Assembly: GCA_965250675.1 (NCBI GenBank)
Contig: CBDFPH010000003.1
Length of the DNA: 64,000 bases
DNA from: Leptothrix sp. (in: b-proteobacteria)
Lineage (GTDB): Bacteria > Pseudomonadota > Gammaproteobacteria > Burkholderiales > Burkholderiaceae_C
Reading direction: 5' to 3' (one strand)
Shown: positions 27,448-56,884 of the stretch, piece after piece
Layout: the number at the start of each line of letters is the position of its first letter
Position numbering within the stretch: the first letter of the stretch is position 1
Notes under the pieces: model-generated
Seen by the model: the letters and a program-made list of their open reading frames with translations, nothing else
Told to the model about the DNA's origin: nothing
Databases searched by the model: none
Made by a program: the position numbers and the translations under genes

Positions 27448-27475
27448 ATGCATGCCAATGCATATTATGTCAACC
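27448..27475 (+). other. dif-like site = attL of the prophage
   Basis: ATGCATGCCAA-TGCATA-TTATGTCAACC. The right arm resembles the XerD arm of E. coli dif (TTATGTTAAAT), and the 17-bp core recurs at 39466-39482 with one mismatch. Confidence 0.8.
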
Positions 27476-27586
27476 CGACTACGTGCCCGCACGCGCCCTG
27501 CGATCGCACTTGGCGCTTTGCTATCTTCTGTTAAGTCCCGCGATTTCACTCGATTTGCCCTTATCTGAGCCGGGGATGATTGATTC

Positions 27587-27994
27587 ATGTCAATCCACCT
27601 CATCCCCAAACACACGCCGAAGTTGTCCATTATCGTGGACGATCTTGCATGCTCTCCCGCTGCGGCCGCTGCCGCGCTGGGTGTCTCAGAGCGCACGCTG
27701 AAACGCTGGCTCGCCGATGACGAGGCGCCGCGGGCGGCGTGCCTCGCGCTGTATTGGGTGTCGCGCTGGGGACTGTCGGCGCTGGATTGCCACCTGCACC
27801 AGGCCGCGCAGATCTACGGCAACCAGGTGCGCGGCTTGGAGCGTGAGTTGCAGCGCGTGCGCGGCGAGCTGGCCCGCGTGCTGCACCACGCCACGTTTGA
27901 AAGCGCAAACGCCCCGACGATGATGGCGCCGGGGCGTCTGCCCTTGGTGTCTGCAGAGGTGGTGCAGCTGCGGCCGCGCCGGGTCAGGGGTTGA
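27587..27994 (+). CDS. Phage HTH (XRE-like) protein with C-terminal coiled coil
   Basis: AAAALGVSERTLKRW helix-turn-helix; GGGGA SD upstream. Confidence 0.75.
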   Translation: MSIHLIPKHTPKLSIIVDDLACSPAAAAAALGVSERTLKRWLADDEAPRAACLALYWVSRWGLSALDCHLHQAAQIYGNQVRGLERELQRVRGELARVLHHATFESANAPTMMAPGRLPLVSAEVVQLRPRRVRG

Positions 27995-28388
27995 GTGCCA
28001 CCCAGCCAGTGAGCTGGCAATTCTTGTTCGGCGGCACCACGGCGTTGTCCTGCAGGACGGCCGCCCGGTAAGCGCCCTCCTTCGCCATGGCGGCGACGAT
28101 CATTTCGTAGGGCGTGGCTGTGAAGCCGCCCGCGAACTTGATGCGCATGACGATCGACGACGTGGCGCCGTACTTCTCATGCTGGGGCCACGGGCCGCCG
28201 ATCACGTCAGCGTCAACAAAGCGCGCCGTGCGGTGGTAGCACTTCAGCGTCTGCTGTGCGAAGTCGATCACGCTGGCGTCCAGGGACAGCGCCTGCACTT
28301 GCCCGGGCTTGTTGAACTCGCTGATCCCCTGCTGCAGCACTGCGGGGTTCTGCATCATCATGGTCACGATGGTTGTAATGGGGTCCAT
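27984..28388 (-). CDS. Hypothetical phage protein (134 aa)
   Basis: AGGTGAG SD; natural composition; two Cys; no recognised family. Confidence 0.65.
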   Translation of the reverse strand: MDPITTIVTMMMQNPAVLQQGISEFNKPGQVQALSLDASVIDFAQQTLKCYHRTARFVDADVIGGPWPQHEKYGATSSIVMRIKFAGGFTATPYEMIVAAMAKEGAYRAAVLQDNAVVPPNKNCQLTGWVALNP

Positions 28389-28605
28389 GGCTCACCTGAG
28401 TTGTTCGCCCGGATTGGTGCACATCTGCAGCAGCGACGGCATCCCCCGGATGGGCGATTGACGCTTTGGCATCCAGGCGCTGTTCGATGCGCATCAGCGT
28501 GCGCTCGATGGCGTCGACGCGGCCGCCCAGCGTCAGGGCGTTGCCCGTCCAGCCGATCAGCAGCCCGGCCAGCGCCACGCCGATCTTCACCAGCATTTCA
28601 TTCAT
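28213..28605 (-). CDS. Putative lysis-accessory membrane protein (TM plus coiled coil); 3' end uncertain
   Basis: MNEMLVKIGVALAGLLIGW...RVDAIERTLMRIEQRLD; ATGA-coupled to the upstream holin-like gene; the tail overlaps the next gene and looks out of frame. Confidence 0.55.
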   Translation of the reverse strand: MNEMLVKIGVALAGLLIGWTGNALTLGGRVDAIERTLMRIEQRLDAKASIAHPGDAVAAADVHQSGRTTQVSHGPHYNHRDHDDAEPRSAAAGDQRVQQARASAGAVPGRQRDRLRTADAEVLPPHGALC

Positions 28606-28769
28606 CGGGCGCCCTCCTTCATCAGCACAGCTGCGGCGCCGGCCAGCGCGCCGGCCCACGCCTGCGGGTCTGCGCCCTTGCTGGCCAGCAGCGCGGCCAG
28701 GCTCTGACAGATCAGGCCCATGCCGGCCCAGGTCGAGGGTTCACGAAGTCGGTAGATGATTTTGCTCAT
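28602..28769 (-). CDS. Putative holin (55 aa, below the track cutoff)
   Basis: MSKIIYRLREPSTWAGMGLICQSLAALLASKGADPQAWAGALAGAAAVLMKEGAR: two hydrophobic segments, an REPSTW motif seen in small phage membrane proteins, charged C-terminus. Confidence 0.6.
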   Translation of the reverse strand: MSKIIYRLREPSTWAGMGLICQSLAALLASKGADPQAWAGALAGAAAVLMKEGAR

Positions 28770-28885
28770 TGATAGTGGTTTGTGGGTGGGGGGGATTCAA
28801 TACTCACCGGCAGGGGCTTGGAAATTTGGCGAGGCTGGTGGCACGGGCTGCAAAAGATGGGTTAGCGTTCCGCGACGAATAACAT

Positions 28886-29836
28886 TTGGGAAAACTGAAC
28901 ATGGGCGGGGACACTTCTACCCAACTCTCGGTGGAGCACTTCACGAGTGCAGCCGACTTTTTGCTTGCTTTGCAACCTGAACGCTGGGTTGACAGACAGC
29001 AGTGGAAGACGCCTTGGGTATTCCGCGGTCAGCTGCGGTCCGAATGGCCGTTGTTGCCCTCCGCATGGCGACCCACCGACGCTCTGATGACGAAGCTTGT
29101 AAGGAGCGCTGTCGATACCGTTGATCCGTTGTGCCTCACGCCGTGCTTCCCAGCGACGTCGCCAATTTCTGCCGAAACCTCGAATCGACTCCGGATTGCG
29201 TTGGCCACTGCAGCCATTGAGCAGAAAATCTGCAGAGAGTTTGCAGACTTGGCGAACTCTGCTGGTCAATACGTCCGCCGAATCCCTGGAGAACTTCCTC
29301 TGATCCGCCTTTTGGAACAGGGACCGCCAATGCGCCTCACCGGAGTGTCTGCTCCCGATGCGCTCACTGCGATGGCTCAACACCACGGGATGCCCACCAG
29401 CCTGCTTGACTGGAGCGGGAGCGGCCAAGTGGCCGCATATTTCGCTGCCGCGGCTGTGCCAGAAGCCAGTTCGGTGGCCGACGAACGCCTCGCCGTCTGG
29501 GCAATCAATAGAACGCGCATCGGCGCCAACTTCAAGGAAGTTCCTGTACATCGGTCCGAGTTGCCCTATTTGCATGCACAACACGGCACCCTTACCTACT
29601 TCTCCGATGGGGACGACTTTGGGCACGCTCATTTCGCGGAGAAGGGGGTGTGGCCCGACATAGCAACTTACGCACAGCCAGGCGCAATCAAGAAGCTCAC
29701 CCTTGCACACAGCGAAGCAGGAGAGTTGCTTAGGTTGCTTTGGCTGAGAGGTGTCTCGAAGGTTCACTTAATGCCCATCTTGGACAACGTCTCGGAAACC
29801 TTGAAGTTGCAGTGGAAGTGGAGCGGCATAACCTAG
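28886..29836 (+). CDS. FRG domain-containing protein (prophage cargo)
   Basis: WVFRGQ...WPLLPSAWR and AQHHGMPTSLLDWS...AAYFA are FRG-domain motifs; lower GC; antisense to the structural operon. Confidence 0.85.
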   Translation: MGKLNMGGDTSTQLSVEHFTSAADFLLALQPERWVDRQQWKTPWVFRGQLRSEWPLLPSAWRPTDALMTKLVRSAVDTVDPLCLTPCFPATSPISAETSNRLRIALATAAIEQKICREFADLANSAGQYVRRIPGELPLIRLLEQGPPMRLTGVSAPDALTAMAQHHGMPTSLLDWSGSGQVAAYFAAAAVPEASSVADERLAVWAINRTRIGANFKEVPVHRSELPYLHAQHGTLTYFSDGDDFGHAHFAEKGVWPDIATYAQPGAIKKLTLAHSEAGELLRLLWLRGVSKVHLMPILDNVSETLKLQWKWSGIT

Positions 29837-31029
29837 CCCAGAGGGATGAACTGCATCGTGATGGGCTTATTGGCTGCAATGCTGAAGGAGTCGCCTGAAC
29901 TGCCCCCTGGGCCAGCGCTGTTGGCCCACAGTTGGCAGTTGACCGGTTTTGAGGATGCGACGGCCTGCACCATCTCCAGCGTGAACGGACCCGCATAGGC
30001 GGCGACGTCCGGCGCGGTGTAGCCGAACATGTAGGGCTGCGCCACCACGCCCCCGTCAATGTCCACGAATCGGGGCGCCAGGATCAGGCTGCGCCCGGCC
30101 GCCAGGTTGACCCAGCCGGTGAACCGGCAAATCACGTTGGCTGCCCCCGTGGGGCCGCTGTAGACCGGGCACACCGCCGCGCTGTCGATGATGGCCGCGC
30201 TGGTCCCGATGGCTGTGCTGGTCAGGCTGGTGAGTTGCAGTGCGGTCGGTCTGCGCGGAATGTCCAGCATCCCGGCTGTCATGGCCGGCGCTGCCTCGAC
30301 CGCTTGATCGCCATCGCTGAACCAAGCGCGTCGAATCTCTACAACATCGTCGGTCGCTCCATCGAACTGGTAGAACTCGACGCCCGGGTACGCACAAACC
30401 ACGTCCGCAATGGCCGGGTTCTCGCCAACCGCGGTCGTGCCATCTGGCAACAGGATGTATGCCTTCCCGCCATCAAGCGAAAGCTCGACCGTGTACCACT
30501 TGTCAACGTCCAGCGCCTTGTTGTACCGACCGGTCTTGTAGTTGGTGATGGTGCCGTTTGTATTCGGCAAGTTCCCGATTGACCAGCCCCACCGATTGAA
30601 AACCAAGTGCGCCGGAGTCGGCGGAATATTGGCGCTAGCCGTCACGCTGTCCCGCCATGGGATCAGTGCCGCGGCCCCGTTTCTTCCTCCCGAGCCAGCC
30701 CGAAAGCGAATCTCCGCCCTGATGCGCTTGCAGCCGGCTGGCATTGGCATATCTGAGTACCACGCGCGCTGCCCGGCGCCTGCCGACGATGTGAGCACGC
30801 CGCCGGATGCAATGAGTGGAGCGCCGTTAGACCGAAAGGAGATTGCGCGGCCAGCCGACGACAGCACCGGCACACCGCTGGCGGGGTTCATCAGGTCAAC
30901 CGAATTTCCAGCCCTTGACACCGAGGATTGAATCGGCAGGATCTCATTTACCCCCGCCATCTGCTGCACCAGGCCGATCAGGCGGCCGTCGTCGTCGAAC
31001 TGGCCTTCTAGGTTTTGAATCGTCGTCAT
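29833..31029 (-). CDS. Putative spike / receptor-binding protein
   Basis: 398 aa, beta-rich and G/A/S/T-rich, with a lectin-like-looking middle (KWYTVELSLDG); last gene of the structural run. Confidence 0.55.
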   Translation of the reverse strand: MTTIQNLEGQFDDDGRLIGLVQQMAGVNEILPIQSSVSRAGNSVDLMNPASGVPVLSSAGRAISFRSNGAPLIASGGVLTSSAGAGQRAWYSDMPMPAGCKRIRAEIRFRAGSGGRNGAAALIPWRDSVTASANIPPTPAHLVFNRWGWSIGNLPNTNGTITNYKTGRYNKALDVDKWYTVELSLDGGKAYILLPDGTTAVGENPAIADVVCAYPGVEFYQFDGATDDVVEIRRAWFSDGDQAVEAAPAMTAGMLDIPRRPTALQLTSLTSTAIGTSAAIIDSAAVCPVYSGPTGAANVICRFTGWVNLAAGRSLILAPRFVDIDGGVVAQPYMFGYTAPDVAAYAGPFTLEMVQAVASSKPVNCQLWANSAGPGGSSGDSFSIAANKPITMQFIPLG

Positions 31030-31038
31030 GCGGGGCTT

Positions 31039-31158
31039 TCAGTTCATTCCGGCTTGCGATCGCAGCCAGGCGCGGAGTTCGGGGATTTGGCCGATGACGA
31101 ATGCCACGGTCATCGTCACGGCCAGCTGGCGGGCCACGTCGCGCACGAAACGGTTCAT
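31039..31158 (-). CDS. Small phage membrane protein (39 aa)
   Basis: MNRFVRDVARQLAVTMTVAFVIGQIPELRAWLRSQAGMN; ATGA overlap with the upstream gene; fills the gap between genes exactly. Confidence 0.65.
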   Translation of the reverse strand: MNRFVRDVARQLAVTMTVAFVIGQIPELRAWLRSQAGMN

Positions 31159-31613
31159 CGGAAGAGGCTGCCGGCGTAGAGGTTGTAGGGGTCTTCGCTG
31201 CCGCTGCCGCTGGCGAAGGTGCCGGCCTGCTCATAGACGGCAGTGCTGGCACCGGTGCGGCCCATGTCGGCCAGGCGCTGCAGGTCGTTGCCGAACAGCA
31301 GGGATGCGCTCGACGGCTGCACGGCTGGGCGCAGGGTGATCGGCTCGGTCAGGGCACGCTCTGCGGCCACGGTGCTGGGGTTCATCAGCTCGAAGATGCG
31401 GGAGCCGAGATTCCAGCTGTCGTCGCCGCTGGCAGCAGCACCCACCGCGTTGACGCTGCGGGCCGCCACGTTGTTCGGGCTGGCCGGGTTGATGGCGCCG
31501 TTGCTGACGGCTTCGCCAACGGTGCTGGCGCCCTTCCAGAGCACCCAGGCCGCGCCGCCCACGGCGGCCGCAATGGCGAACACCTGCATGTCGCCGAGAT
31601 TGAGCGCCTTCAT
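31155..31613 (-). CDS. Phage membrane protein (N-terminal TM)
   Basis: TM segment, then INPASPNN...VNAVG...WNLGSRIFE, a pattern I recall from PM2-like prophage proteins. Confidence 0.7.
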   Translation of the reverse strand: MKALNLGDMQVFAIAAAVGGAAWVLWKGASTVGEAVSNGAINPASPNNVAARSVNAVGAAASGDDSWNLGSRIFELMNPSTVAAERALTEPITLRPAVQPSSASLLFGNDLQRLADMGRTGASTAVYEQAGTFASGSGSEDPYNLYAGSLFR

Positions 31614-32263
31614 GCCAGCACCCCACCGGCTGTTTCGTACTTCGCCAGCAGCGTCGACAACTTGCGCTCAGGCTGGCCGTAGCCGGCGCCCGGCAGGCTC
31701 GCCCATTCGGCTTTGCACTTGCCGATGGCTGCTTCGATGCGACCGGCTTGCACGTCGCCCATGGCGCCACGGTTGCGGATCAGCCAGCACGCGGCCGCGT
31801 CCTGGTTCATCGGGCTGAAGTCCGCCAAGCCCAGGGCGCGGCGGGCGCTCAGCCAGGTTGCGCGGATGATCTGGTAGCGGCCGGCCGCAGTGCTCACCAT
31901 GCCGGCGTACTGGCTGCCGAGGTGCGCGATGCTCTCGCCGGTCCATTCGCGAGTCACGGCGGGGTGATCCGTGAACGACTGGATGGTGTGGCGGTAGCCG
32001 AAGCAGACGCGGTACGGGTCAGAGCGCAGGTCAGTGCCTTCAGCGGCTGCAATCATGCTCAGGAAGGCCCGCGTGTTGGTATCTCGCATGTCGGTGTCCA
32101 GGTTGCTTTGATCCATGAATCGGTCGATCGCGCCGATCGGATCGACGTAGTCCAGCGCGGTGGAGCCGTCGTCAGATTCAGCAGCGGCGGCGTCCGCTTG
32201 TGACCGCACCAGGAGCACGCCCAGCAGGGCGGCACCGGCGGCGATCACTATTTTTTTGTTCAC
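31610..32263 (-). CDS. Lambda-type lysozyme / lytic transglycosylase with N-terminal membrane anchor
   Basis: RAFLSMIAAAEGT, STAAGRYQII..TW, DFSP.NQD.AA, EWASLPGAGYGQ. Confidence 0.9.
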   Translation of the reverse strand: MNKKIVIAAGAALLGVLLVRSQADAAAAESDDGSTALDYVDPIGAIDRFMDQSNLDTDMRDTNTRAFLSMIAAAEGTDLRSDPYRVCFGYRHTIQSFTDHPAVTREWTGESIAHLGSQYAGMVSTAAGRYQIIRATWLSARRALGLADFSPMNQDAAACWLIRNRGAMGDVQAGRIEAAIGKCKAEWASLPGAGYGQPERKLSTLLAKYETAGGVLA

Positions 32264-33024
32264 AGCGTCTCGACTTCAAACCGCACGTTCAGGTTTGCGC
32301 CGTTGGTCAATGCCTTGAAAAGCAGATAGCTGCCAGGCGGAAGGACGAACGGGGATTTCGAGTAATCGAACTCGTTCTGAACTGCCGGCTGAATCAAATA
32401 ACTGTGCCGAGATTTTGAGCTTGGAAACTTGGCATCGAATGCACCCAGCGTTGCGTAGCTGTTTGCAAAAATGTCGCACTGGCCCACCGGCAAATCAGGG
32501 CTGCCAATCAATTTATTGAAAACCGTATCGGTCGCCAAAAACCCAGCGGCAACAATGTTTGAGCCAGATATTGCAGAAACCAATGCGGCAGTGTCTGAAG
32601 AAATGTTCAGATTGGTAATTGCCAGCGGTGTCGTCCCATTGTTTCGAATGCCGGCGATAGGCTGATTCCCAGCAGTGCCGCTGATACCGATCGTGCCGAT
32701 GTAGCTTTTGCCAGCGAGGGTCTTTTCGGCGCTGCTGTCGATCACCCGCACGTTGCCGGGCTGTCGACGGCTACCGCCCCGGCCGGTTTCCATCACCAGG
32801 ATCTGCACGGTTTGAGCCGTGGGCGAGTAGATGACGAACGCGCCGTAGGTGTCTTCCAGGAACAGGCCGGAGACGGCGTTGACCATCTGGTCAGACTGGC
32901 GGCCGCTGGCTTCGTAGAAGTCGATGCGCACCGGGCCGCTGGACTCGATCAGCTCGAAGTAGCGCCCTGCCCGCTCGAAACGCTTGGTCTCGCCCGCAGT
33001 CAGGGTGATGGACAGAAGTTCCAT
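32260..33024 (-). CDS. Putative penton/spike protein
   Basis: Beta-rich N-terminal ~100 aa at host-like GC; visibly AT-richer C-terminal domain; position in the structural module. Confidence 0.55.
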   Translation of the reverse strand: MELLSITLTAGETKRFERAGRYFELIESSGPVRIDFYEASGRQSDQMVNAVSGLFLEDTYGAFVIYSPTAQTVQILVMETGRGGSRRQPGNVRVIDSSAEKTLAGKSYIGTIGISGTAGNQPIAGIRNNGTTPLAITNLNISSDTAALVSAISGSNIVAAGFLATDTVFNKLIGSPDLPVGQCDIFANSYATLGAFDAKFPSSKSRHSYLIQPAVQNEFDYSKSPFVLPPGSYLLFKALTNGANLNVRFEVETL

Positions 33025-33027
33025 GGA

Positions 33028-33834
33028 TCAGGCTTTCTTGAAGAACGAGAGGGCCACCAGGCCGGCAATGGCGAACATGGCGTACTTCATGACGTCCGCG
33101 CTCTTGTTCTCGGCCGGCTGATAGGTGCTCATGGCCGATGTGGCGATGCCCTGAGCGGCTTTCAGCGTGCCGTCGGCACTGCTGAAGATGCGATCGAGCG
33201 TGTCGCCCGAGATGTCGAGCGTGTGCCCCCAGGCCTGCGCGCTGTTGCTCTGCGCCTGCCCGAACATGGACGTGACCGACTCACCCGAGGTGCGCAGCGC
33301 GTCATAGCCGAAACCGGCCAGCACGCCCACGGCGTCGCCGTTGGCTTCAGCCTGCGCGCCCACCAGCTGCGCGCCGATCTCTGCAAACCGCACGGCGCCG
33401 GGGTCGGTGCCGGTGATGTTGGTCGAGCGGTTGGAGTAGTCCGCGAACGTGCTGGCGTAGCTGTCGGCGTCGTTGACCGAACGGTTCGAGGTATCCGACC
33501 AGGTCGACGTGTCCTGGTCGAAAACGGTGGTTGACCGGTTCGAGGTGTCGGACCAGGTCGACGTGTCCTGGTCGTAGACGTTGGTCGAGCGGTTCGAGGT
33601 ATCCGACCAGGTCGACGTGTCCTGATCGTTGACGTTGGTCGACCAGTTCGACGTGGTCGTGTTGTTGCGGTTGCTGCCGGCGTTGGTGTTGTCGGTGCTG
33701 TAGTCGAGGTACTGGCTGTTGTCGGACGAATCGAACGTGTTGGTGTTCGTCGTCGAGACGTAGTTGCTGCTCGTCTGCGCACTGGTGGTCTTGTTGCCAC
33801 CACTGCCGATTCCCAGGAAGCTCAAGAGGCCCAT
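33028..33834 (-). CDS. Phage membrane protein with 18-aa tandem repeats (candidate DNA delivery protein)
   Basis: S/T/D/N-rich; (NVxDQDTSTWSDTSNRST)x3; C-terminal TM followed by KKA. Confidence 0.75.
   Translation of the reverse strand: MGLLSFLGIGSGGNKTTSAQTSSNYVSTTNTNTFDSSDNSQYLDYSTDNTNAGSNRNNTTTSNWSTNVNDQDTSTWSDTSNRSTNVYDQDTSTWSDTSNRSTTVFDQDTSTWSDTSNRSVNDADSYASTFADYSNRSTNITGTDPGAVRFAEIGAQLVGAQAEANGDAVGVLAGFGYDALRTSGESVTSMFGQAQSNSAQAWGHTLDISGDTLDRIFSSADGTLKAAQGIATSAMSTYQPAENKSADVMKYAMFAIAGLVALSFFKKA
33482..33643. repeat. 54-bp tandem repeat, 3 copies plus a degenerate fourth to the left
   Basis: CGGTTCGAGGT(A/G)TC(C/G)GACCAGGTCGACGTGTCCTG starts at 33482, 33536 and 33590. Confidence 0.92.
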
Positions 33835-34292
33835 CAGGATTTCGCTTTCTTGGCCTTGAGGATGACCAGCACCATCAAGCCCAGCATGATGTAGGTGGTG
33901 GTATTGCCACCCGCCTGAACCAGCGCGAACGGCTCAGCACCATCACCGGTGATGGAGTCGAACCCGCTCAGCGCCGGCACGCCGTAGGCGTACTGCGTGG
34001 CCTGCGCTTGGCTGACCTCAAACGGGTTGAAGCCCGCCGTAGGCGGCAGGGGCAGCGCTGCAGCGCCCACGCGCTGCGTGGCCGTGCCGCGACCCGTCGC
34101 CACGTTGATGCCCAGGGTCGGCCCGCCGTTGGAGATGCCACCGGTGTTGGCCGGGCCGCTGTAGCCGTCGTTGAACGACAAGCCCAGGCCACCGGCCGCG
34201 CCTCCACCCGGCATGCCGGGCATGCCAGGGGGCACGCCCATGGCGGCCATGCCCATGCTGGCGAGCAGCGCCGTCTGCTGACCGTTCGCCAT
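33834..34292 (-). CDS. Phage membrane protein (G/P-rich, C-terminal TM)
   Basis: Ends YIMLGLMVLVILKAKKAKS. Confidence 0.75.
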   Translation of the reverse strand: MANGQQTALLASMGMAAMGVPPGMPGMPGGGAAGGLGLSFNDGYSGPANTGGISNGGPTLGINVATGRGTATQRVGAAALPLPPTAGFNPFEVSQAQATQYAYGVPALSGFDSITGDGAEPFALVQAGGNTTTYIMLGLMVLVILKAKKAKS

Positions 34293-34295
34293 AGG

Positions 34296-34700
34296 TCACG
34301 CCATCGCCAAGTAGGCGACCAGGGCGGCAATGATGAGCGTGGTGGTCGAGCTTTGCGCGGCAGGCGGTTGCGCGGCGCCGGCCTGGTTGCCTGCGCCGTT
34401 CTGGTACGTGCGGCCGTTCTGGCCGGAGAACGTGCCGGGGTTGGTGTTGCCGCCAATGCCGGCCACCTGCCCCGGCATGGCGTTGTCGATCGCACGGGTG
34501 GCGCCGTACATCACCAGGCGCTCCCACCACGGCGCGGCCGGGTTGCTGTTGACCGGTGCCGGGGTGTAGGGGTTCATGCGCTGAGCTTCCGCACCATCGC
34601 CCGGCATGAAGTACGGATTGCCCAGCAGCGTCTGTTGCTCAGCGGGGAGACCGGCCACGTAAGCGTTCGCGTCGCTGGCGAAAAGGTTGTAGTCGCTCAT
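34296..34700 (-). CDS. Phage membrane protein (C-terminal TM)
   Basis: Ends TLIIAALVAYLAMA; directly downstream of the capsid gene. Confidence 0.75.
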   Translation of the reverse strand: MSDYNLFASDANAYVAGLPAEQQTLLGNPYFMPGDGAEAQRMNPYTPAPVNSNPAAPWWERLVMYGATRAIDNAMPGQVAGIGGNTNPGTFSGQNGRTYQNGAGNQAGAAQPPAAQSSTTTLIIAALVAYLAMA

Positions 34701-34712
34701 CGCATGGTCCGA

Positions 34713-35546
34713 TCAGAGCTGGCTGTTCAGCGCGTAGCCTTCGACGTAGATCCCGATCGTGTCCGCGCCGCTGGTGCGCAGGCGAATGTCCAGGTTCTGC
34801 ACCGGCACGGCCTTGCCGGCCGCGACGGTGAACGCGGTGTTGAACGCGTTGGACTGCAGCACGTCGGGCATGAAGTCCACGATGTGGAAGCCAGCCTGCG
34901 GCAGGTTGCCGAAGTCCTGTTCGCGGAAGTTGGCCAGGGCCACGGGCACGTCTTCGTAGATCTCGACGCCGTCGCGGCGCACGCGGGCCGCAGCCAGGTT
35001 GCCGCCGTGCTTGAGCACCAGGCGCTTGACTTGGAAGCCTTGCGCACCGAACGGCAGGTAGATCATTTCTTCGGCGGCGGCCGCGATCACCTTCTGTTGG
35101 TACATGACGCGGTGCACGATCGTGTTCGCGCTGGGGGATTCCACGTCGGCATACACCGTGATGCCGCTGCCTGCGGCCGGCACGTAGGTGCCCAGGTCGA
35201 ATTCAAGGGTGAAGTCCTGCACGCCGGCCTCTTGGCACGCGGCGATGGTGCCCAGCGTCATCGCGACTTCTTCACGGGCGCGGCGCTCGGTGAAGTCGAT
35301 CACGAAGAAACCGGCGTTCAGCGTGTTGCCCTTGTACGCGTTCAGCGCGTCCAGGTCAGTCGCCAAATTCCAGCGCTGGAATTCTTTGTTGTTGAGGCGC
35401 AGCGTGATGTTGCTCATCAACGCCTTGGTGATGTTCGTGCCCAACACGAAGTACAGCTTCTGGTAGACCACACCCAGGGGCAGGCGCAGCGAAACCCGCG
35501 TGTTCGGGCTGACGTTCTGAAGGGCGGGGAGCTTGATGATGCGCAT
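34713..35546 (-). CDS. Double jelly-roll major capsid protein, PM2 P2-like
   Basis: 277 aa. LQNVSPNTRVSLRLPLGVVY matches the pattern of PM2 P2 IPNVAAGNSCSIKLPIGQTY as I recall it; also FFVIDF, HIVDFM...QNLDIRL...IYVE; adjacent to the packaging ATPase. Confidence 0.88.
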   Translation of the reverse strand: MRIIKLPALQNVSPNTRVSLRLPLGVVYQKLYFVLGTNITKALMSNITLRLNNKEFQRWNLATDLDALNAYKGNTLNAGFFVIDFTERRAREEVAMTLGTIAACQEAGVQDFTLEFDLGTYVPAAGSGITVYADVESPSANTIVHRVMYQQKVIAAAAEEMIYLPFGAQGFQVKRLVLKHGGNLAAARVRRDGVEIYEDVPVALANFREQDFGNLPQAGFHIVDFMPDVLQSNAFNTAFTVAAGKAVPVQNLDIRLRTSGADTIGIYVEGYALNSQL

Positions 35547-35570
35547 TGTTTTCCTTGGGTGTGAAGTCGA

Positions 35571-35687
35571 TCAGCCCATCAGCGCCTTGTCGACCAGCGG
35601 CTTGGCCGGGCCGATCTTGCGGAGCACAAAAATGGTGAGGAGGACGACACCGGTCGTCATCAGGGCGTCTTTGACTTTGCTTTGCAT
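35571..35687 (-). CDS. Small phage membrane protein (38 aa)
   Basis: MQSKVKDALMTTGVVLLTIFVLRKIGPAKPLVDKALMG; single TM; just upstream of the capsid gene. Confidence 0.7.
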   Translation of the reverse strand: MQSKVKDALMTTGVVLLTIFVLRKIGPAKPLVDKALMG

Positions 35688-35799
35688 GGGGTGTTCCGTT
35701 CTGGATTTGAGGGGGTGAAGAGCCGCCAGTAAACCCCCGCCGAACGTCACGAACAACCCCCCGCCAACGTACCCGTATACGTATGGAAAACGCGCTGAA

Positions 35800-36483
35800 T
35801 CACCGCCCCGTGAACGGGGTTGATCGCTCCGTGAACTTGCCGTTGCGAATGTGGATTTCGCCCGCGATCAGCGTCTTCTCGCGCCTGTCACGTTGCAAGT
35901 AGCGGATCACCACGCCGGTCGGCGTGTCGTCGGTCTGAAGCAGGCCCATGGCCGAATCAGGGCAGTCCAACTCACGTGCCATCGCGCGGCGGTCGGCCTC
36001 ATAGCCCAGGCCGAAGCACCTCACGCGGGTGCAGTTGCCAAGGAAGGTTTTGTCGATCAGGGATGGCCGCTGCGCCGCGCCCAGCACCTGCAGGCCCCGG
36101 TGCCGGCCCTGCGTGGTGATCCGGCGCCAGGCGGGCGGCGCATAGCCCGGTGTCGTCACGTCGGACAGCTCTTCGGCCAGGAAGCACAGCGCGCCCGCCT
36201 CGAACGCCAGCGCGCACACCAGCCCGAAGGCGTCGGCCAGCTTCAGGGCCGATCCCGGCACGTAGCGCACGCGGATCGGCCCGGCGCCGGCCTTGCGGAA
36301 TGCGGCCACCAGCGCCGGCAGCGTGCGCACGGCCGGGGCCTGCTTGGCGTACTCGTCGCGGGGATCCCAGATCAGCAGCCGGGGCGGTGCCAGCTCGGCG
36401 AGCCGGCGATTGATGCTCACGCCCTTGCCGCTGCCCGAGGCGCCGATGTAGGCCTCGATCTGGGGGCGGTTGGTGACGCTCAT
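35800..36483 (-). CDS. Genome packaging ATPase (FtsK/HerA superfamily, A32/P9 type)
   Basis: Walker A GASGSGKG, LIWDP, Walker B FLAEEL, QGRHRG...AAQRP; ATG 36483 overlaps the upstream stop. Confidence 0.9.
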   Translation of the reverse strand: MSVTNRPQIEAYIGASGSGKGVSINRRLAELAPPRLLIWDPRDEYAKQAPAVRTLPALVAAFRKAGAGPIRVRYVPGSALKLADAFGLVCALAFEAGALCFLAEELSDVTTPGYAPPAWRRITTQGRHRGLQVLGAAQRPSLIDKTFLGNCTRVRCFGLGYEADRRAMARELDCPDSAMGLLQTDDTPTGVVIRYLQRDRREKTLIAGEIHIRNGKFTERSTPFTGR

Positions 36484-36908
36484 GCGCGGCGCTTGCGCTC
36501 TTCGGCGGCCAGCTCCATCTGTCGCTGCTTGAACGCGAAGTAGGTGGCGACGCACGGCGGGATGATTGCGCACAGCATGGCGATATACGGCCCGTATTTG
36601 CTGGCAACTTCGCCCATGTTCCAGCCGTGCTGCTCCATGATCGCGGCCGCGCTGTCAGCGATCTGGCGTAGCTGATGGTCGCTCCAGACTGCCGCGAACT
36701 GCGGCCACCAGGTGACAGCAGGCGCCGCGATCATGCGGCCCATCTGCATGAATGCGATCAGCTCATCAGCCGTGCTCATGGCCGGCGCAGCGCCGGGCAG
36801 CGCGGCGGGCGCGGCCGCAGATTCCAGCGCGGCCGCTTGGGCTTCCAGCGCGGCCAGGGGATCGCCAGCGGGGGCGGGCTGGTCGATGATTTCGGTTTCA
36901 GTGGTCAT
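36480..36908 (-). CDS. Phage membrane protein upstream of the ATPase
   Basis: C-terminal TM (YIAMLCAIIPPCVATYFAF) followed by a basic tail. Confidence 0.72.
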   Translation of the reverse strand: MTTETEIIDQPAPAGDPLAALEAQAAALESAAAPAALPGAAPAMSTADELIAFMQMGRMIAAPAVTWWPQFAAVWSDHQLRQIADSAAAIMEQHGWNMGEVASKYGPYIAMLCAIIPPCVATYFAFKQRQMELAAEERKRRA

Positions 36909-36912
36909 GGGT

Positions 36913-37218
36913 TCACCAGCTCATCAGGGATTTGCGCGCCGGCGCCGCAGGGGCTGCAGCGGGCGCGGTTGAGGGGGTAGGCGCGGCCGGTGCTGGTGCG
37001 GGCGCTGGCGGTGCCATTGCGGGTGCCGGCGCCGGCTCGGCAATGTGCCTCGCCCGTAACGAGGAGTCGGACGCGTCGCCGCGCGCAAACGTCTGCGATT
37101 TGCAGTCGCTGCACGTCACGTAGGGCAACAGCTTTTTCGACACACGCAGGCGGGCCTGTTCGGACCCGCACACCGGGCAGCGGCACCGCCCGATTTCGTT
37201 TTCGCGGGCGGCGGTCAT
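36913..37218 (-). CDS. Zinc-ribbon protein (candidate late transcription activator)
   Basis: CPVCG...YVTCSDC...TF; A/P-rich tail. Confidence 0.72.
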   Translation of the reverse strand: MTAARENEIGRCRCPVCGSEQARLRVSKKLLPYVTCSDCKSQTFARGDASDSSLRARHIAEPAPAPAMAPPAPAPAPAAPTPSTAPAAAPAAPARKSLMSW

Positions 37219-37415
37219 CAGTCGACCAGGACGGGAGCCACGGGTTCCGTGCGGGCCTGCGCCACGGCCAGGGTTTCCAGCGCGGCGGCAGTGGCGGTCA
37301 TGAACTCTGCGGCCAGTTCGCCCAGGCGGACGATGGGCGCCGGGACGAATTGCCGGCTGGAGTTGTCGACCAGGTGCTGTGCCTCAGCGGCGATTTCTGC
37401 GGGGGTGCGGTTCAT
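37218..37415 (-). CDS. Hypothetical phage protein (65 aa)
   Basis: Tightly coupled to both neighbours. Confidence 0.6.
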   Translation of the reverse strand: MNRTPAEIAAEAQHLVDNSSRQFVPAPIVRLGELAAEFMTATAAALETLAVAQARTEPVAPVLVD

Positions 37416-38302
37416 GGGTGGTTCTCGGGTGGGTGGCTCGGTTCAAGAGCCGGGGTGGACCGCCGTTCAAGTTCTTTGAACGGTCGGGGAATTCCTTGTC
37501 CTACTGGTGACGGGGTTACGGGCTGCTGGCGTTGCTCAGGATCAGGCCGTAGAGCCGTTTTGGGGGGCGTGGGTGCCCTACCCCCTTGGGGGTCTGTTTT
37601 TGAGCGCAGGAAGCGCTCCCTGAGCGCCTGAGCGCGCATGACTGCCGTGCGGCTGTCGACGGCGGGCGCTTCGTCGCTGGCAGGCGGCGGGGGGGCGTGC
37701 CGCGCAGCGGCTTCATTCAACCCCCCTCGGGGGGTCTGTTGAACCCCTCCCTCGACTGCTTCAGTCTGTGGATAACTTGCGGTCTTGGGGGTAGGGGGTT
37801 TTAAGAAATTCTTCTTGAAAGAGCTGTTCTCTTTCGTGTTTTCTTCGTGTTGTGAACTTGAAGAATTCGTTGCTGCGTAAGGGGTTGATGCACGTTTGTG
37901 GCTGTTTTCATCCCTGTTCAATTTTTCCGTGGACGTGCTTTTCCAGACCCTGGGTGCGATCTGAAAAAACAGGACTTGCTCGGTCTCCGACCGGCCCTTG
38001 TCACGCGCCAGGATCAGCAGCTTCTCGAAGGCCGCCAGCATCGTGCGCACCTGCTGCAGGCTGATCGTGGGGAGCCGCTTGCCGCGTGCGGGCTGGTCGG
38101 GCTGCAGGGCGTTCAGCAGCTCGCCGTAGCTGGTCTTCACGGTGCCCTTCTTGAAGTCGCTGAAGGCGGCCAGGCACATGAACAGGCGCGTGCCCCACGC
38201 CGGCAGGCCCCAGAGGGCTTGCCACTCGTGTTCCAGGACGGGAAGAAAAAGGGCCGAACCCGGCCCGAAGTTGTGGGAGCGAACGAGCTGCATCACCATC
38301 AC
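37412..38302 (-). CDS. Putative replication initiator (wHTH-like N-terminus, low-complexity C-terminus)
   Basis: Largest early gene; helical N-terminal ~120 aa; AT-rich internal tract; no HUH or polymerase motifs seen. Confidence 0.55.
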   Translation of the reverse strand: MMVMQLVRSHNFGPGSALFLPVLEHEWQALWGLPAWGTRLFMCLAAFSDFKKGTVKTSYGELLNALQPDQPARGKRLPTISLQQVRTMLAAFEKLLILARDKGRSETEQVLFFQIAPRVWKSTSTEKLNRDENSHKRASTPYAATNSSSSQHEENTKENSSFKKNFLKPPTPKTASYPQTEAVEGGVQQTPRGGLNEAAARHAPPPPASDEAPAVDSRTAVMRAQALRERFLRSKTDPQGGRAPTPPKTALRPDPEQRQQPVTPSPVGQGIPRPFKELERRSTPALEPSHPPENHP

Positions 38303-38520
38303 ACGTCCAGCCTGATGAAGCGCACCACGGCGGCCTGGTGGTCGTAGCCGGTGTCCCAGAGGTAGGCCACGCGGGCCTTCTCTTCCGCGTCCAGGACGCT
38401 GCGGGCCATGCCCGACCAGAGGAAGCCCGATGCTTCGTCAGGGTGGCTCAGGCAGACGGCGTACCGCAGCTGCTCGGCACGTGGCCGGGCGCGCAGGAGG
38501 GGGAGGATGGCGGCCTTCAC
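38299..38520 (-). CDS. Hypothetical phage early protein (73 aa)
   Basis: Overlapping start and stop codons with neighbours. Confidence 0.6.
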   Translation of the reverse strand: MKAAILPLLRARPRAEQLRYAVCLSHPDEASGFLWSGMARSVLDAEEKARVAYLWDTGYDHQAAVVRFIRLDV

Positions 38521-38705
38521 AGGGCGCCCTCAATGTGCTCTGCTGCAGCGCGGATGACGCCAGCACGGCGGCGCAGCTCGCGGCGCTTGCTTTCGTCCGG
38601 CTCGTAGGCGGCAGCTTGCTCCAACTCGCCGTATTTCTCCCATGCCGCTTCCATGGCTTCGCGGGCTTCTTCGTCGGTCAGCTTGTAGAGCTTGAAGTTC
38701 TTCAT
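38517..38705 (-). CDS. Hypothetical phage early protein (62 aa)
   Basis: Charged helical peptide, coupled to neighbours. Confidence 0.62.
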   Translation of the reverse strand: MKNFKLYKLTDEEAREAMEAAWEKYGELEQAAAYEPDESKRRELRRRAGVIRAAAEHIEGAL

Positions 38706-38929
38706 GCTTCCACCCCTGCCCGCGCAAACAGCCGGCGGCGCTCGACGGCGGGCTTGACGTTCTCCAGCGGCTCGACGTGCTTCCAGGTCGGGAAGCCTGC
38801 GACGCGGATCAGCGCGGCCGGGCGGCCTGCGCGGTCACGGCAGAGGTTGGCCAACGTGCCGAAAAGCTCGGTGTCGGTGCAACCGAAGGTGAACCGGACT
38901 TGATCGCCCGGCTGGAATGCTGCGTTCAT
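38702..38929 (-). CDS. Hypothetical phage early protein (75 aa; may start at 38995)
   Basis: FQPGDQVRF start resembles small SH3/KOW-like beta-barrels. Confidence 0.55.
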   Translation of the reverse strand: MNAAFQPGDQVRFTFGCTDTELFGTLANLCRDRAGRPAALIRVAGFPTWKHVEPLENVKPAVERRRLFARAGVEA

Positions 38930-39044
38930 GGTGATGGCCTCTTGCGCCGGCCCCGTCTTGCCCCTTGCCCCCTCGGAGGGGGCCGCTGCGCTCACGGTGA
39001 CGGGGCCAGCCGTCAGAAACCGTGAATTGCGCAGCGACGGCGAG

Positions 39045-39116
39045 AGGATACGTACAGCGTCGCTAGACAGTCAAGCGACGCTGTACCTTGCCCCATGGTT
39101 TTCTAGGGCGTAAAGT
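39045..39116. promoter_or_regulatory. Divergent promoter/operator region of the prophage
   Basis: Leftward TTGACT(39074-39069)-N18-TATCCT; rightward TTGCCC(39088)-N17-TAAAGT(39111); perfect 13-bp inverted repeat 39052-39064 / 39074-39086. Confidence 0.65.
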
Positions 39117-39146
39117 GTCACTAGACGTTTCAACCGGGGCCAGCCA

Positions 39147-39479
39147 ATGAAGACAGTCGAATTTCTGGACGCACTCAAGCGTCAGCACTCGATCGAGAGC
39201 GATTACGGGGTTTCCAAGCTGCTGGGGATCACCCGCCAGCGCCTGAGCAACTACCGCTCAGGGCGCGATTTTTTCGGGGATGAGATCGCAAGCCAGGTTG
39301 CGCAGATGCTCGGGCTTGACCCGGGCTATGTGATGGCCTGCGCCCACGCAGAGCGGGCCGCTACAGCAGAGATTCGGGCGGTGTGGGAGAGCGTCGCGGC
39401 CAAGCTGGCCGGCGTGGGCGCCGTTGCAGCGCCCGCCCCGTCAAAGGCTCAGAAGAAGGAGCCTTTGCATATTATGTAA
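39147..39479 (+). CDS. Prophage repressor (XRE-like HTH), 3' end overlaps attR
   Basis: SDYGVSKLLGITRQRLSNYRSG HTH; divergent from the early operon; the last codons H-I-M-stop are the att core. Confidence 0.82.
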   Translation: MKTVEFLDALKRQHSIESDYGVSKLLGITRQRLSNYRSGRDFFGDEIASQVAQMLGLDPGYVMACAHAERAATAEIRAVWESVAAKLAGVGAVAAPAPSKAQKKEPLHIM

Positions 39480-39482
39480 ACC
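39455..39482 (+). other. dif-like site = attR of the prophage
   Basis: GAAGGAGCCTT-TGCATA-TTATGTAAACC; 16 of 17 bp identical to 27459-27475. Confidence 0.8.
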
Positions 39483-55816: not shown

Positions 55817-56884
55817 ATGAAGTCTTACCCGCTGTTCCCGTCGATCGAGGCTGAAGACCTGCGCACGGAGTTGCTGGCGCTGTTCGAGCGCTGGCTGGCC
55901 TCCAAGCCCGGGCGCAGCCGTCAGAAAGTGCATGCGCTGGCCAATGAGTCGGCCCATGTCTATCGGGACATGTGGGGCGCGTTCGCATCGTTCTGCATTC
56001 CGCTCGATGAGGAAGGGTTGCACTACGTGCGGGTTAACCCGCTGCAAGGCGTGCGCCGGGAGCAGATGCAGCTTTTCCTGTCACTACCCAACCCGGGGCC
56101 GCGAGCGCCTGGTCGGGGCCGCGTCCGCAATGACGCGCTGGCGCTGCGCTACGCCTGGCGCATGCTGCACCTGATCGACCGGGTGCTGACGTTCCACCGC
56201 ATCCGCAAAAAGGAAAAAAGCGCCGGTCCCACGGCGGCTGCAGCGCTGTTGCTGGAAGCGCCCTACCGCTACGCCAACTCGGCCGCGCTGAATCCTGAGA
56301 CGGAAATCCTCAGCGACGGCGAACTGAGGCGGCTGATGGCGCTGTTGACTGCCCCGTTGCCAAGCAACAGTTCGCCGCGCGGTGAATGGCGCCTGGTGCG
56401 TGACCGGGCGCTGGTGGCGCTGATGCTGGGCGCCGGGCTTGGCCCCGGCGACGCGCAAGGCCTGCTGCTGGACGGGCTGGCGCTGGAGGATGGCCCCGTG
56501 CCCGGCGTGCCGTGGCGCTTGACCGTGCCGGCCGATGGCCTGTCGCCTGAACATCAGACGCCGGTGGCGCAATGGGCGGGAGAGTTGCTGGCACGTTGGC
56601 TGGCGTTGCGCACGGCCAAGGCCATTGCCGGCGACTTCGTGTTTCCGTCCACCCTGAGCGGCAAACAATTGTCCCGGCCGGCGGTGCACAGTGCGGCCGT
56701 CAGCGTGCTGGAAGCAGCCGAGGTCATGGGCGGCGCTCCGTTCCGTTTGCGGCACACTTTTGCCGTGCGGCAGTTGACCAAGGGCTACTCGGAAGAACAG
56801 GTGGGCGCCTGGATGGGCATGGTCGAGTTGCGCACCATGCAGCGCTACCGCAAGTACGTCGTCAAGGCGCAGGATCTGGCCTGA
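55817..56884 (+). CDS. Tyrosine recombinase-fold protein with degenerate active site
   Basis: RDRALVALMLGAGLG, LRHTFA, TMQRY align to the XerD boxes. Confidence 0.8.
   Translation: MKSYPLFPSIEAEDLRTELLALFERWLASKPGRSRQKVHALANESAHVYRDMWGAFASFCIPLDEEGLHYVRVNPLQGVRREQMQLFLSLPNPGPRAPGRGRVRNDALALRYAWRMLHLIDRVLTFHRIRKKEKSAGPTAAAALLLEAPYRYANSAALNPETEILSDGELRRLMALLTAPLPSNSSPRGEWRLVRDRALVALMLGAGLGPGDAQGLLLDGLALEDGPVPGVPWRLTVPADGLSPEHQTPVAQWAGELLARWLALRTAKAIAGDFVFPSTLSGKQLSRPAVHSAAVSVLEAAEVMGGAPFRLRHTFAVRQLTKGYSEEQVGAWMGMVELRTMQRYRKYVVKAQDLA

Follow-up and report, generated by a model that had tools for sequence, protein, structure and literature searches.

What becomes of a phage repressor when the attachment site of the phage lies inside the repressor gene? 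The question is raised by a 12-kb prophage in the window, the 64,000-nucleotide stretch of Leptothrix DNA analyzed here, in which the repressor gene ends within the right-hand attachment site. A preliminary description had proposed that host XerCD recombines the phage at dif, that a single mismatch between the two attachment cores makes or removes a stop codon, and that the tail gained by the circular form resembles a degradation tag. We assess this proposal using the window itself, the host genome, relatives of the host genus, and a survey of related repressors.

A PM2-like prophage at the replication terminus

The prophage and its principal structural genes are as follows.

27459..39482, no strand: 12-kb prophage assigned to the integrase-less PM2-like (dif-type double jelly-roll) type, with P2_N and P2_C capsid domains, an endolysin, and an ATPase; recombinase-free
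34713..35546, minus strand: major capsid protein of the PM2 P2 type (Pfam P2_N 3e-31, P2_C 1.6e-25)
35800..36573, minus strand: packaging ATPase (phrog_2666, E 1.2e-21; homologs in L032 and L034)

Together with an endolysin gene (PHROGs match) and numerous small membrane-protein genes, this content identifies the interval, as judged by its genes, as an integrase-less, dif-type, PM2-like double jelly-roll prophage of a tailless phage. Profile searches of the whole genome for XerC, XerD, and Resolvase gave nothing within the element (C3:147770-159792), and no integrase domain was found among the element ORFs scanned with Pfam and PHROGs. The host encodes a XerD scoring 355 bits, over the cut-off, and a XerC-like paralog at 309 bits, just under its 335-bit cut-off. 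The earlier statement that recombination is left to host enzymes agrees with both results. A weak tyrosine-recombinase-like match at about 56306-56854 (C3:176617-177165; XerD E 3e-6) lies ~17 kb to the right of the prophage and is unrelated to it. Within the element, an FRG-domain gene (28886-29836; Pfam 9e-14) is located on the opposite strand amid the late genes and is likely accessory cargo. A tandem array of four 54-nt units, which share 60-84% identity with the reference copy, occupies 33409-33655 inside a 268-aa S/T/N/D-rich gene (33028..33834).

The prophage is bordered by a 17-bp direct repeat, TGCATATTATGT[C/A]AACC, at 27459-27475 and 39466-39482. The window holds these two matches against none expected, and no further copies were found in the 3.93-Mb genome at ≤2 mismatches. 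As previously described, the copies differ at a single base, C at 27471 and A at 39478, which is the middle base of TCA/TAA and makes or removes the stop. This toggle base is position 24 of the 28-bp dif; it falls within the XerD arm, outside the central region. The two junctions are composed as follows.

27448..27475, plus strand: attL, a complete 28-bp dif, with host XerC arm ATGCATGCCAA, central region TGCATA, and phage-derived XerD arm TTATGTCAACC (C at 27471)
39455..39482, plus strand: attR, with phage sequence GAAGGAGCCTT, central region TGCATA, and host XerD arm TTATGTAAACC (TAA at 39477-39479, toggle A at 39478)

The left arm of attL equals the dif consensus of the genus, ATGCATGACGA, at 9 of 11 positions, and a full dif is regenerated at this junction. 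On its left side, attR consists of phage coding sequence that does not resemble a XerC arm, matching at 2 of 11 positions. We interpret the 17-bp core as the dif central region plus the XerD arm, i.e. a ‘half dif’ attP. A perfect 9-bp inverted repeat (CAAAGGCTC-N8-GAGCCTTTG, 39442-39467) lies within the 3′ end of the repressor gene and abuts the core where the XerC arm would be. It was rejected as a terminator or Xer accessory structure, given a z of -1.4, no other copies, and no conservation in 11 relatives.

The chromosomal position of the element is that expected of dif. Along the contig, cumulative GC skew reaches its peak at the element, and the FtsK-orienting KOPS motif (GGGNAGGG) changes polarity across it, with 20 forward and 2 reverse copies to the left and 4 forward and 34 reverse copies to the right. 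By these two measures, the element lies at the replication terminus. Thirteen relatives in the genus carry one site apiece of the form ATGCATGACGA-TGTRTA-TTATGT[C/A]AA. Their XerC arm (loci L017-L029) is atypical, lacking the usual CATAA beside the central region, and for this reason a query with an E. coli-type dif gave no good match in the genome. Skew, KOPS, and the match of the left arm of attL to the genus XerC arm all bear out the earlier placement of the site at host dif.

A joined-flank search found no unoccupied attB in the genus relatives, where the flanks lie 50-100 kb apart or on different contigs as a result of rearrangement of the terminus region. The genus dif consensus was therefore used in place of an empty attB. 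Position 24 is polymorphic in this consensus, being C in 10 of the 13 relatives. In hosts with C at this position, integration would give the repressor a host-encoded tail and no clean stop. Positions 23-24 of the XerD arm are also the variable part of dif according to Carnoy and Roten (PMC2731167).

Short and long forms of the repressor

The two segments that encode the repressor are 12 kb apart in the prophage.

39147..39479, plus strand: prophage form (110 aa) of the putative repressor, a member of the XRE-HTH + DUF3693 / PM2 ORF c / phiRSS0 ORF13 family (Pfam DUF3693 1.5e-8, phrog_638 5e-29)
27470..27568, plus strand: tail-coding segment of 32 codons plus TGA (27566-27568), continuing the repressor frame only when the genome is circular (attP form)
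39052..39086, no strand: candidate operator, a palindrome with 17-nt arms (GTACAGCGTCGCTAGAC / GTCAAGCGACGCTGTAC, 94% complementary) located between the early operon and the repressor gene, in their divergent control region

At attR, the prophage form ends CAT ATT ATG TAA (HIM-stop), the stop being supplied by the host arm. When attL is read in the repressor frame, it gives CAT ATT ATG TCA followed by 31 more codons, and the resulting tail is STRLRARTRPAIALGALLSSVKSRDFTRFALI (32 aa). XerCD strand exchange occurs at the borders of the dif central region. Since the mismatch is at position 24 of the arm, it should stay with its own flank; as a consequence, the circle is predicted to carry TCA and the empty site TAA. 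A crossover to the right of the mismatch is implausible because only four identical bases are available there, which is too few. A crossover in the central region would thus yield a circular-form repressor of 142 aa (HIM-TCA plus 31 codons). These readings coincide with the earlier statements on the 110-aa end at attR and the 32-aa in-frame extension from attL, and we consider it very likely that the two repressor isoforms exist.

The short form is expected to be functional. The window repressor is 40% identical to PM2 ORF c (E 8e-14), and the PM2 homolog consists of the 91-aa domain alone, so the 110-aa form should be competent. In an AlphaFold model of the closest long-form relative, the helical domain at residues 1-90 has a pLDDT of 93-98, while the region beyond scores 47-63. 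This low confidence past residue 90 suggests that the tail is probably flexible and exposed. The tail of the window phage has a net charge of +6 and the C-terminus FALI, and it has no clear similarity to the tail of the nearest relative. A transmembrane anchor was rejected for this tail, as the 142-aa form contains no TM-grade segment (maximum KD19 1.14). Upstream of the gene, a promoter-like site on the minus strand (39074-39045) overlaps the region of the candidate operator, and a third AGCGACG half-site lies nearby at about 39033.

Relatives are found in both states. We compiled 45 loci from protein and family-alignment searches, along with further contigs for individual homologs; these sequences are mostly metagenomic, and integrated or free state was assigned only where there was enough flanking DNA. 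Six loci are unintegrated (L032, L036, L072, L082, L083, L085): they are flanked by phage genes left and right, arranged as the window predicts for a circle. In these loci the arm is TTATGT[T/C]AA, and the frame continues through it as IM[S/L] plus 23-28 codons. Short-form copies stop exactly in the arm with the host-type base (TTATGTAAA): L077-80 end ...FCIM-stop, with a host DUF1178 gene directly next in L077; L073 and L074 end ...PMSIM-stop; and L084 ends ...LCIM-stop. As L077 is a close relative of L072, the two constitute a natural short/long pair. A complete chromosome of the same family (L091) encodes ...RLCILC-stop, in which a canonical host arm (TTATGTTAA), read in frame 0, supplies TGT TAA. 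If the window toggle is real, IM-stop and IM[S/L] endings are expected in integrated and free relatives, respectively, and this is the pattern that the relatives display.

The outcome at position 24 depends on the frame in which the arm is read. In frame 1 (ATG TNA), A gives a TAA stop, whereas C or T is observed to be read through; by the genetic code, G would give TGA. In frame 0 (TGT NAA), T stops and A is seen in DNA. Under the genetic code, A, C, or G would be read through in this frame, and a Q-encoding C is implied by protein motifs. From these codon tables and the sequences in hand, position 24 of dif is interpreted as a stop/read-through toggle in two frames.

This arrangement is widespread in the family. 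A profile search of 1.84 billion representatives recovered 5,662 family members. The XerD arm is encoded inside the C-terminal region in 91 of 162 diverged representatives, and all three frames are used: the motif IM[S/L] occurs in 43 and an exact ...IM end in 7, ILC[K/Q/E] in 14, and VYYV[K/N] in 27, of which 9 stop right after it. In other members, including PM2, the att site is found 30-95 nt past the stop, and it is outside the gene in about 40% of loci. Overlap of attachment site and repressor is therefore common in the family, though not obligatory.

Several variants of this layout were also noted. In PM2 (L086), two small annotated ORFs, b and b*, extend across attP (663-773); ORF b starts at the ATG of the XerD arm (MLNN...), in the same frame as the arm of the window repressor. 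Five IMG/VR viral contigs (L050, L052, L053, L055, L056) have repressor homologs ending ...QCALYVKGLI-stop. We take their end codons to hold a XerC arm of the V. cholerae dif1 type (AGTGCGCATTA) and a central region, followed by a degenerate XerD arm, and on account of the dif1-like arm we assume that their host is a Vibrio. The attP of these contigs is of the opposite arm type and is likewise inside the ORF. In two further loci, L039 and L065, the repressor gene includes, at its 3′ end, dif-like XerC-arm sequence in reverse (…NTDYAKQRRR… and …DLYIMRTRRRKAA-stop). The RRRKAA end of the L065 tail resembles ClpX signals of the MuA and ssrA types.

Proposed consequences of integration for the tail and the operon

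Integration also separates the repressor from the gene that follows attP in the circle.

27587..27994, plus strand: HTH gene, 135 aa, putative counterpart of the PM2 P15 / XafT-like regulator (weak Pfam HTH matches)

This gene starts 18 nt past the tail stop; it is co-directional with the repressor gene in the circle and 12 kb from it in the prophage. Its product shares an HTH block with the PM2 DUF3653 protein (local BLASTP E 1e-4). Pfam did not detect DUF3653 in the product even at an E of 10, and an hhalign comparison of its relatives with DUF3653/XafT, a weak comparison, gave 15% probability. A clear homolog is present in L085. In PM2, annotation assigns the product of the gene after attP to DUF3653, which is the XafT family, and a 2025 study groups P15 with XafT (PMC12715192).

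As a whole, the locus is best explained, with a likelihood that we place slightly above even, by XerCD integration at dif that both retails the repressor and splits an operon, with the tail altering repressor behavior. In this mechanism, a tailless PM2-like phage would use host XerC/XerD to integrate at chromosomal dif. The circle would carry a single leftmost operon comprising the 142-aa repressor, attP, and the XafT/P15-like HTH gene. A central-region crossover would then swap the phage XerD arm and the 32-codon tail for the host arm; its A at position 24 of dif would create the TAA and hence a 110-aa repressor that retains the whole DNA-binding domain. The same crossover would shift the XafT-like gene 12 kb from the repressor promoter. 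We infer that the tail may change the stability, localization, or activity of the repressor, such that full immunity and a stable prophage would follow integration, as in mycobacteriophage BPs.

It is possible, at somewhat less than even likelihood, that operon splitting is the main effect, the prophage being locked in when the XafT-like gene loses the repressor promoter and the tail serving as an attP spacer. This reading is compatible with the best explanation above. It draws on the presence of a co-directional gene after the tail in every unintegrated double jelly-roll relative and after attP in PM2, on the similar rep-attP-int logic of BPs (PMC3694055), and on our finding no promoter-like site between attL and the HTH gene. 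However, phiRSS0, a filamentous phage discussed below, has a tail without a co-directional gene and instead has a terminator-like hairpin. Gaps of 18-96 nt are too long for translational coupling of the repressor to the downstream gene, which was rejected accordingly. Operon splitting also leaves the conservation of tails unexplained.

That conservation bears on whether the overlap could be neutral, i.e. whether attP must sit between the repressor and the XafT-like gene, so that a loose C-terminus simply runs on into it and the isoforms behave alike. Several features are in keeping with this account. The C-terminal region is predicted to be disordered and is highly variable in length and sequence, the arm frame differs even among close relatives (e.g. 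L057 vs L091), and the site is outside the gene in PM2 and the two-fifths or so of loci noted above. The window tail is not visibly conserved with the nearest relative. By estimate, tails of 14-54 aa fit chance open frames at this GC, and 32 open codons at 66% GC are not unlikely. Tail length was consequently rejected as evidence of selection, as the classes are themselves defined by read-through.

Comparable tails are nevertheless conserved at the protein level. The motif FGQLLA near the tail end is common to L036 and L072 despite 7 nucleotide differences, all of which are synonymous; random sets of 7 substitutions retained it in 5 of 10^6 trials (5e-6). Between P0034 and P0062, the tails are identical at 19 of 21 residues (z = 15), whereas identity between the DNA-binding domains is 49%. 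Homologous TM-helix tails are joined to the repressor via the arm in frames 1, 0, and 2 (z 6.8-10.6), which indicates that the fusion has been kept by selection despite indels. Arg/Lys runs also tend to open the tails in frames 1 and 2, immediately after the arm. Tails thus appear, from these comparisons, to be under protein-level selection in several lineages, and we regard neutral overlap as unlikely. For the window phage itself, we judge the chances that the tail matters functionally to be about equal either way.

The preliminary description likened the non-polar -FALI end to a degron. Ala-ending tails do exceed the expectation from composition (22/71, p 4e-5). The same ending occurs in 18 of 74 members without an att motif in the gene, so C-terminal Ala was rejected as a tail-specific degron signature. 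The presence of an Ala or non-polar C-terminus in both classes points to a habit of the family and not to a mark of the viral form, although an ancestral tag, lost on integration in lineages where site and gene overlap, would fit it as well. The window tail ends FALI, not AA. It seems rather unlikely that this tail acts specifically as a proteolysis tag.

An alternative that we consider quite improbable for the window phage is that its tail is functional but no degron, acting as an extra basic DNA- or protein-binding arm in a viral form with another job, or elsewhere as a membrane tether; its net charge of +6, the well-defined class of tails in which basic residues follow a TM helix, the TM-like segments that adjoin the att motif in phiRSS0, L073, and P0067, and the hypothesis of Yamada for phiRSS0 ORF13 (PMC3816273) speak for it, whereas the lack of a TM-grade segment in the 142-aa form speaks against tethering here. 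Across the family, a TM-grade segment lies just before and/or after the att-encoded motif in P0067, P0143, P0107, P0127, P0086, P0131, P0151, P0060, phiRSS0 ORF13, and L073. In those lineages, the viral-form repressor could be membrane-tethered, and such tails point to at least one function other than that of a degron.

Returning to integration that retails the repressor and splits the operon, we tentatively extend it to a selected strategy that would be general among Xer-exploiting phages, filamentous and tailless alike, with an ORF13/P16/RstR-DUF3693 repressor. Recombination at dif would strip a functional C-terminal module, a degron or a membrane anchor depending on lineage, with position 24 toggling two of the three frames. 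This generalization is somewhat doubtful at present. If it is true, the repressor isoform made by a lysogen would depend on the host dif allele. Phages that borrow XerCD lack an integrase of their own to control, which raises the question of how integration is tied to the lysogeny decision. On a practical level, prophage and viral copies of such repressors will be annotated at different lengths, and prophage borders that lie inside a gene matter for border prediction.

Comparison with known systems

The parallel drawn in the preliminary description was with integration-dependent immunity in mycobacteriophage BPs (Broussard et al. 2013; PMC3694055, PMC4557955). Its layout stands: in both systems the repressor ORF contains attP, and the C-termini of the two forms differ, with the shorter form made by the prophage. 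The recombinase does not carry over. BPs relies on a tyrosine integrase of its own and on a tRNA attB, while the window phage would use host Xer at dif. In BPs, a recombination gene past attP is severed from the repressor promoter on integration; in the window, a putative XafT-like HTH gene occupies this place and there is no integrase. Given that the gene after attP is also cut from the repressor promoter, the parallel is in this respect closer than was stated. The two repressors belong to unrelated families, and the BPs tag has been experimentally shown to cause proteolysis, whereas such a role for the window tail is putative. If removal of the tail stabilizes or relocates the repressor, the window phage would represent a second, independently evolved integration-dependent immunity switch.

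The closest relatives in particle type are the dif-type double jelly-roll phages. Use of XerCD by tailless phages was reported between 2023 and 2025, for example in NO16 (PMC9966536) and Jorvik (PMC10589892), and a lysogeny module of the order P16/RstR - attP - P15/XafT was described in 2025 (PMC12715192). Such phages resemble the window phage in being integrase-less and PM2-like, in integrating at dif through a 17-bp ‘left-armed’ attP with one junction forming a full dif, and in having a repressor gene at one prophage terminus; their other terminal gene is XafT-like, as that of the window phage may be. They differ in that the published cases are from Vibrio, Pseudoalteromonas, and Rhodobacter and that attP is placed ‘between’ the two genes. 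The searchable text of PMC9966536, PMC10589892, and PMC12715192 makes no mention of an attP within an ORF or of an altered repressor C-terminus. Likewise, the PM2 repressor homolog stops about 90 nt ahead of attP, whereas the window repressor runs through it.

The claim that this combination was undescribed does not hold, as it had already been published for a homologous repressor. In the Ralstonia filamentous phage phiRSS0, a dif-type attP is located inside ORF13, a putative immunity repressor, and XerCD integration makes a new stop that shortens ORF13 from 156 to 130 aa; different roles were proposed for the two forms (Yamada 2013, PMC3816273), and the case was restated in 2015 (Askora and Yamada, PMC4471427). 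ORF13 is homologous to the window repressor, at 31% identity over 96 aa (BLASTP E 2e-17). The phiRSS0 sequence reproduces the toggle in frame 0, with ...FILCK followed by a 26-aa basic tail and the phage arm TTATGTAAAAT. In both phages, the 3′ end of the repressor gene contains a dif-type attP comprising the central region and XerD arm, the host arm gives the stop, position 24 decides, and the host belongs to the Burkholderiales. In contrast to the double jelly-roll prophage in the window, phiRSS0 is an inovirus. Its arm is read in frame 0 (ILC-K vs ILC-stop, host T giving TAA), that of the window phage in frame 1 (HIM-S vs HIM-stop, host A giving TAA). In addition, phiRSS0 has no co-directional XafT-like gene after the tail, the terminator-like hairpin being found there instead.

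A similar case is the Xanthomonas filamentous phage XacF1 / Cf1c, in which attP is inside the regulator gene ORF12 (PMC4076744). As in the window, a XerCD/dif attP in the coding region of a putative regulator is split by integration. The XacF1 attP is of the XerC-arm type and belongs to an inovirus, and the likeness of ORF12 to the window repressor drawn here is one of layout. No functional test of any such isoform pair was found in the literature. The window case is ordinary in kind, and its value resides in the family-wide survey, the evidence for selection on tails, and the clean, small test system that it offers. Compared with these precedents, it is apparently the first from a double jelly-roll phage and the first in frame 1. 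If the switch is real, it would occur in two virus realms that are unrelated but have one lysogeny module in common, and it would respond to one polymorphic base in the host dif.
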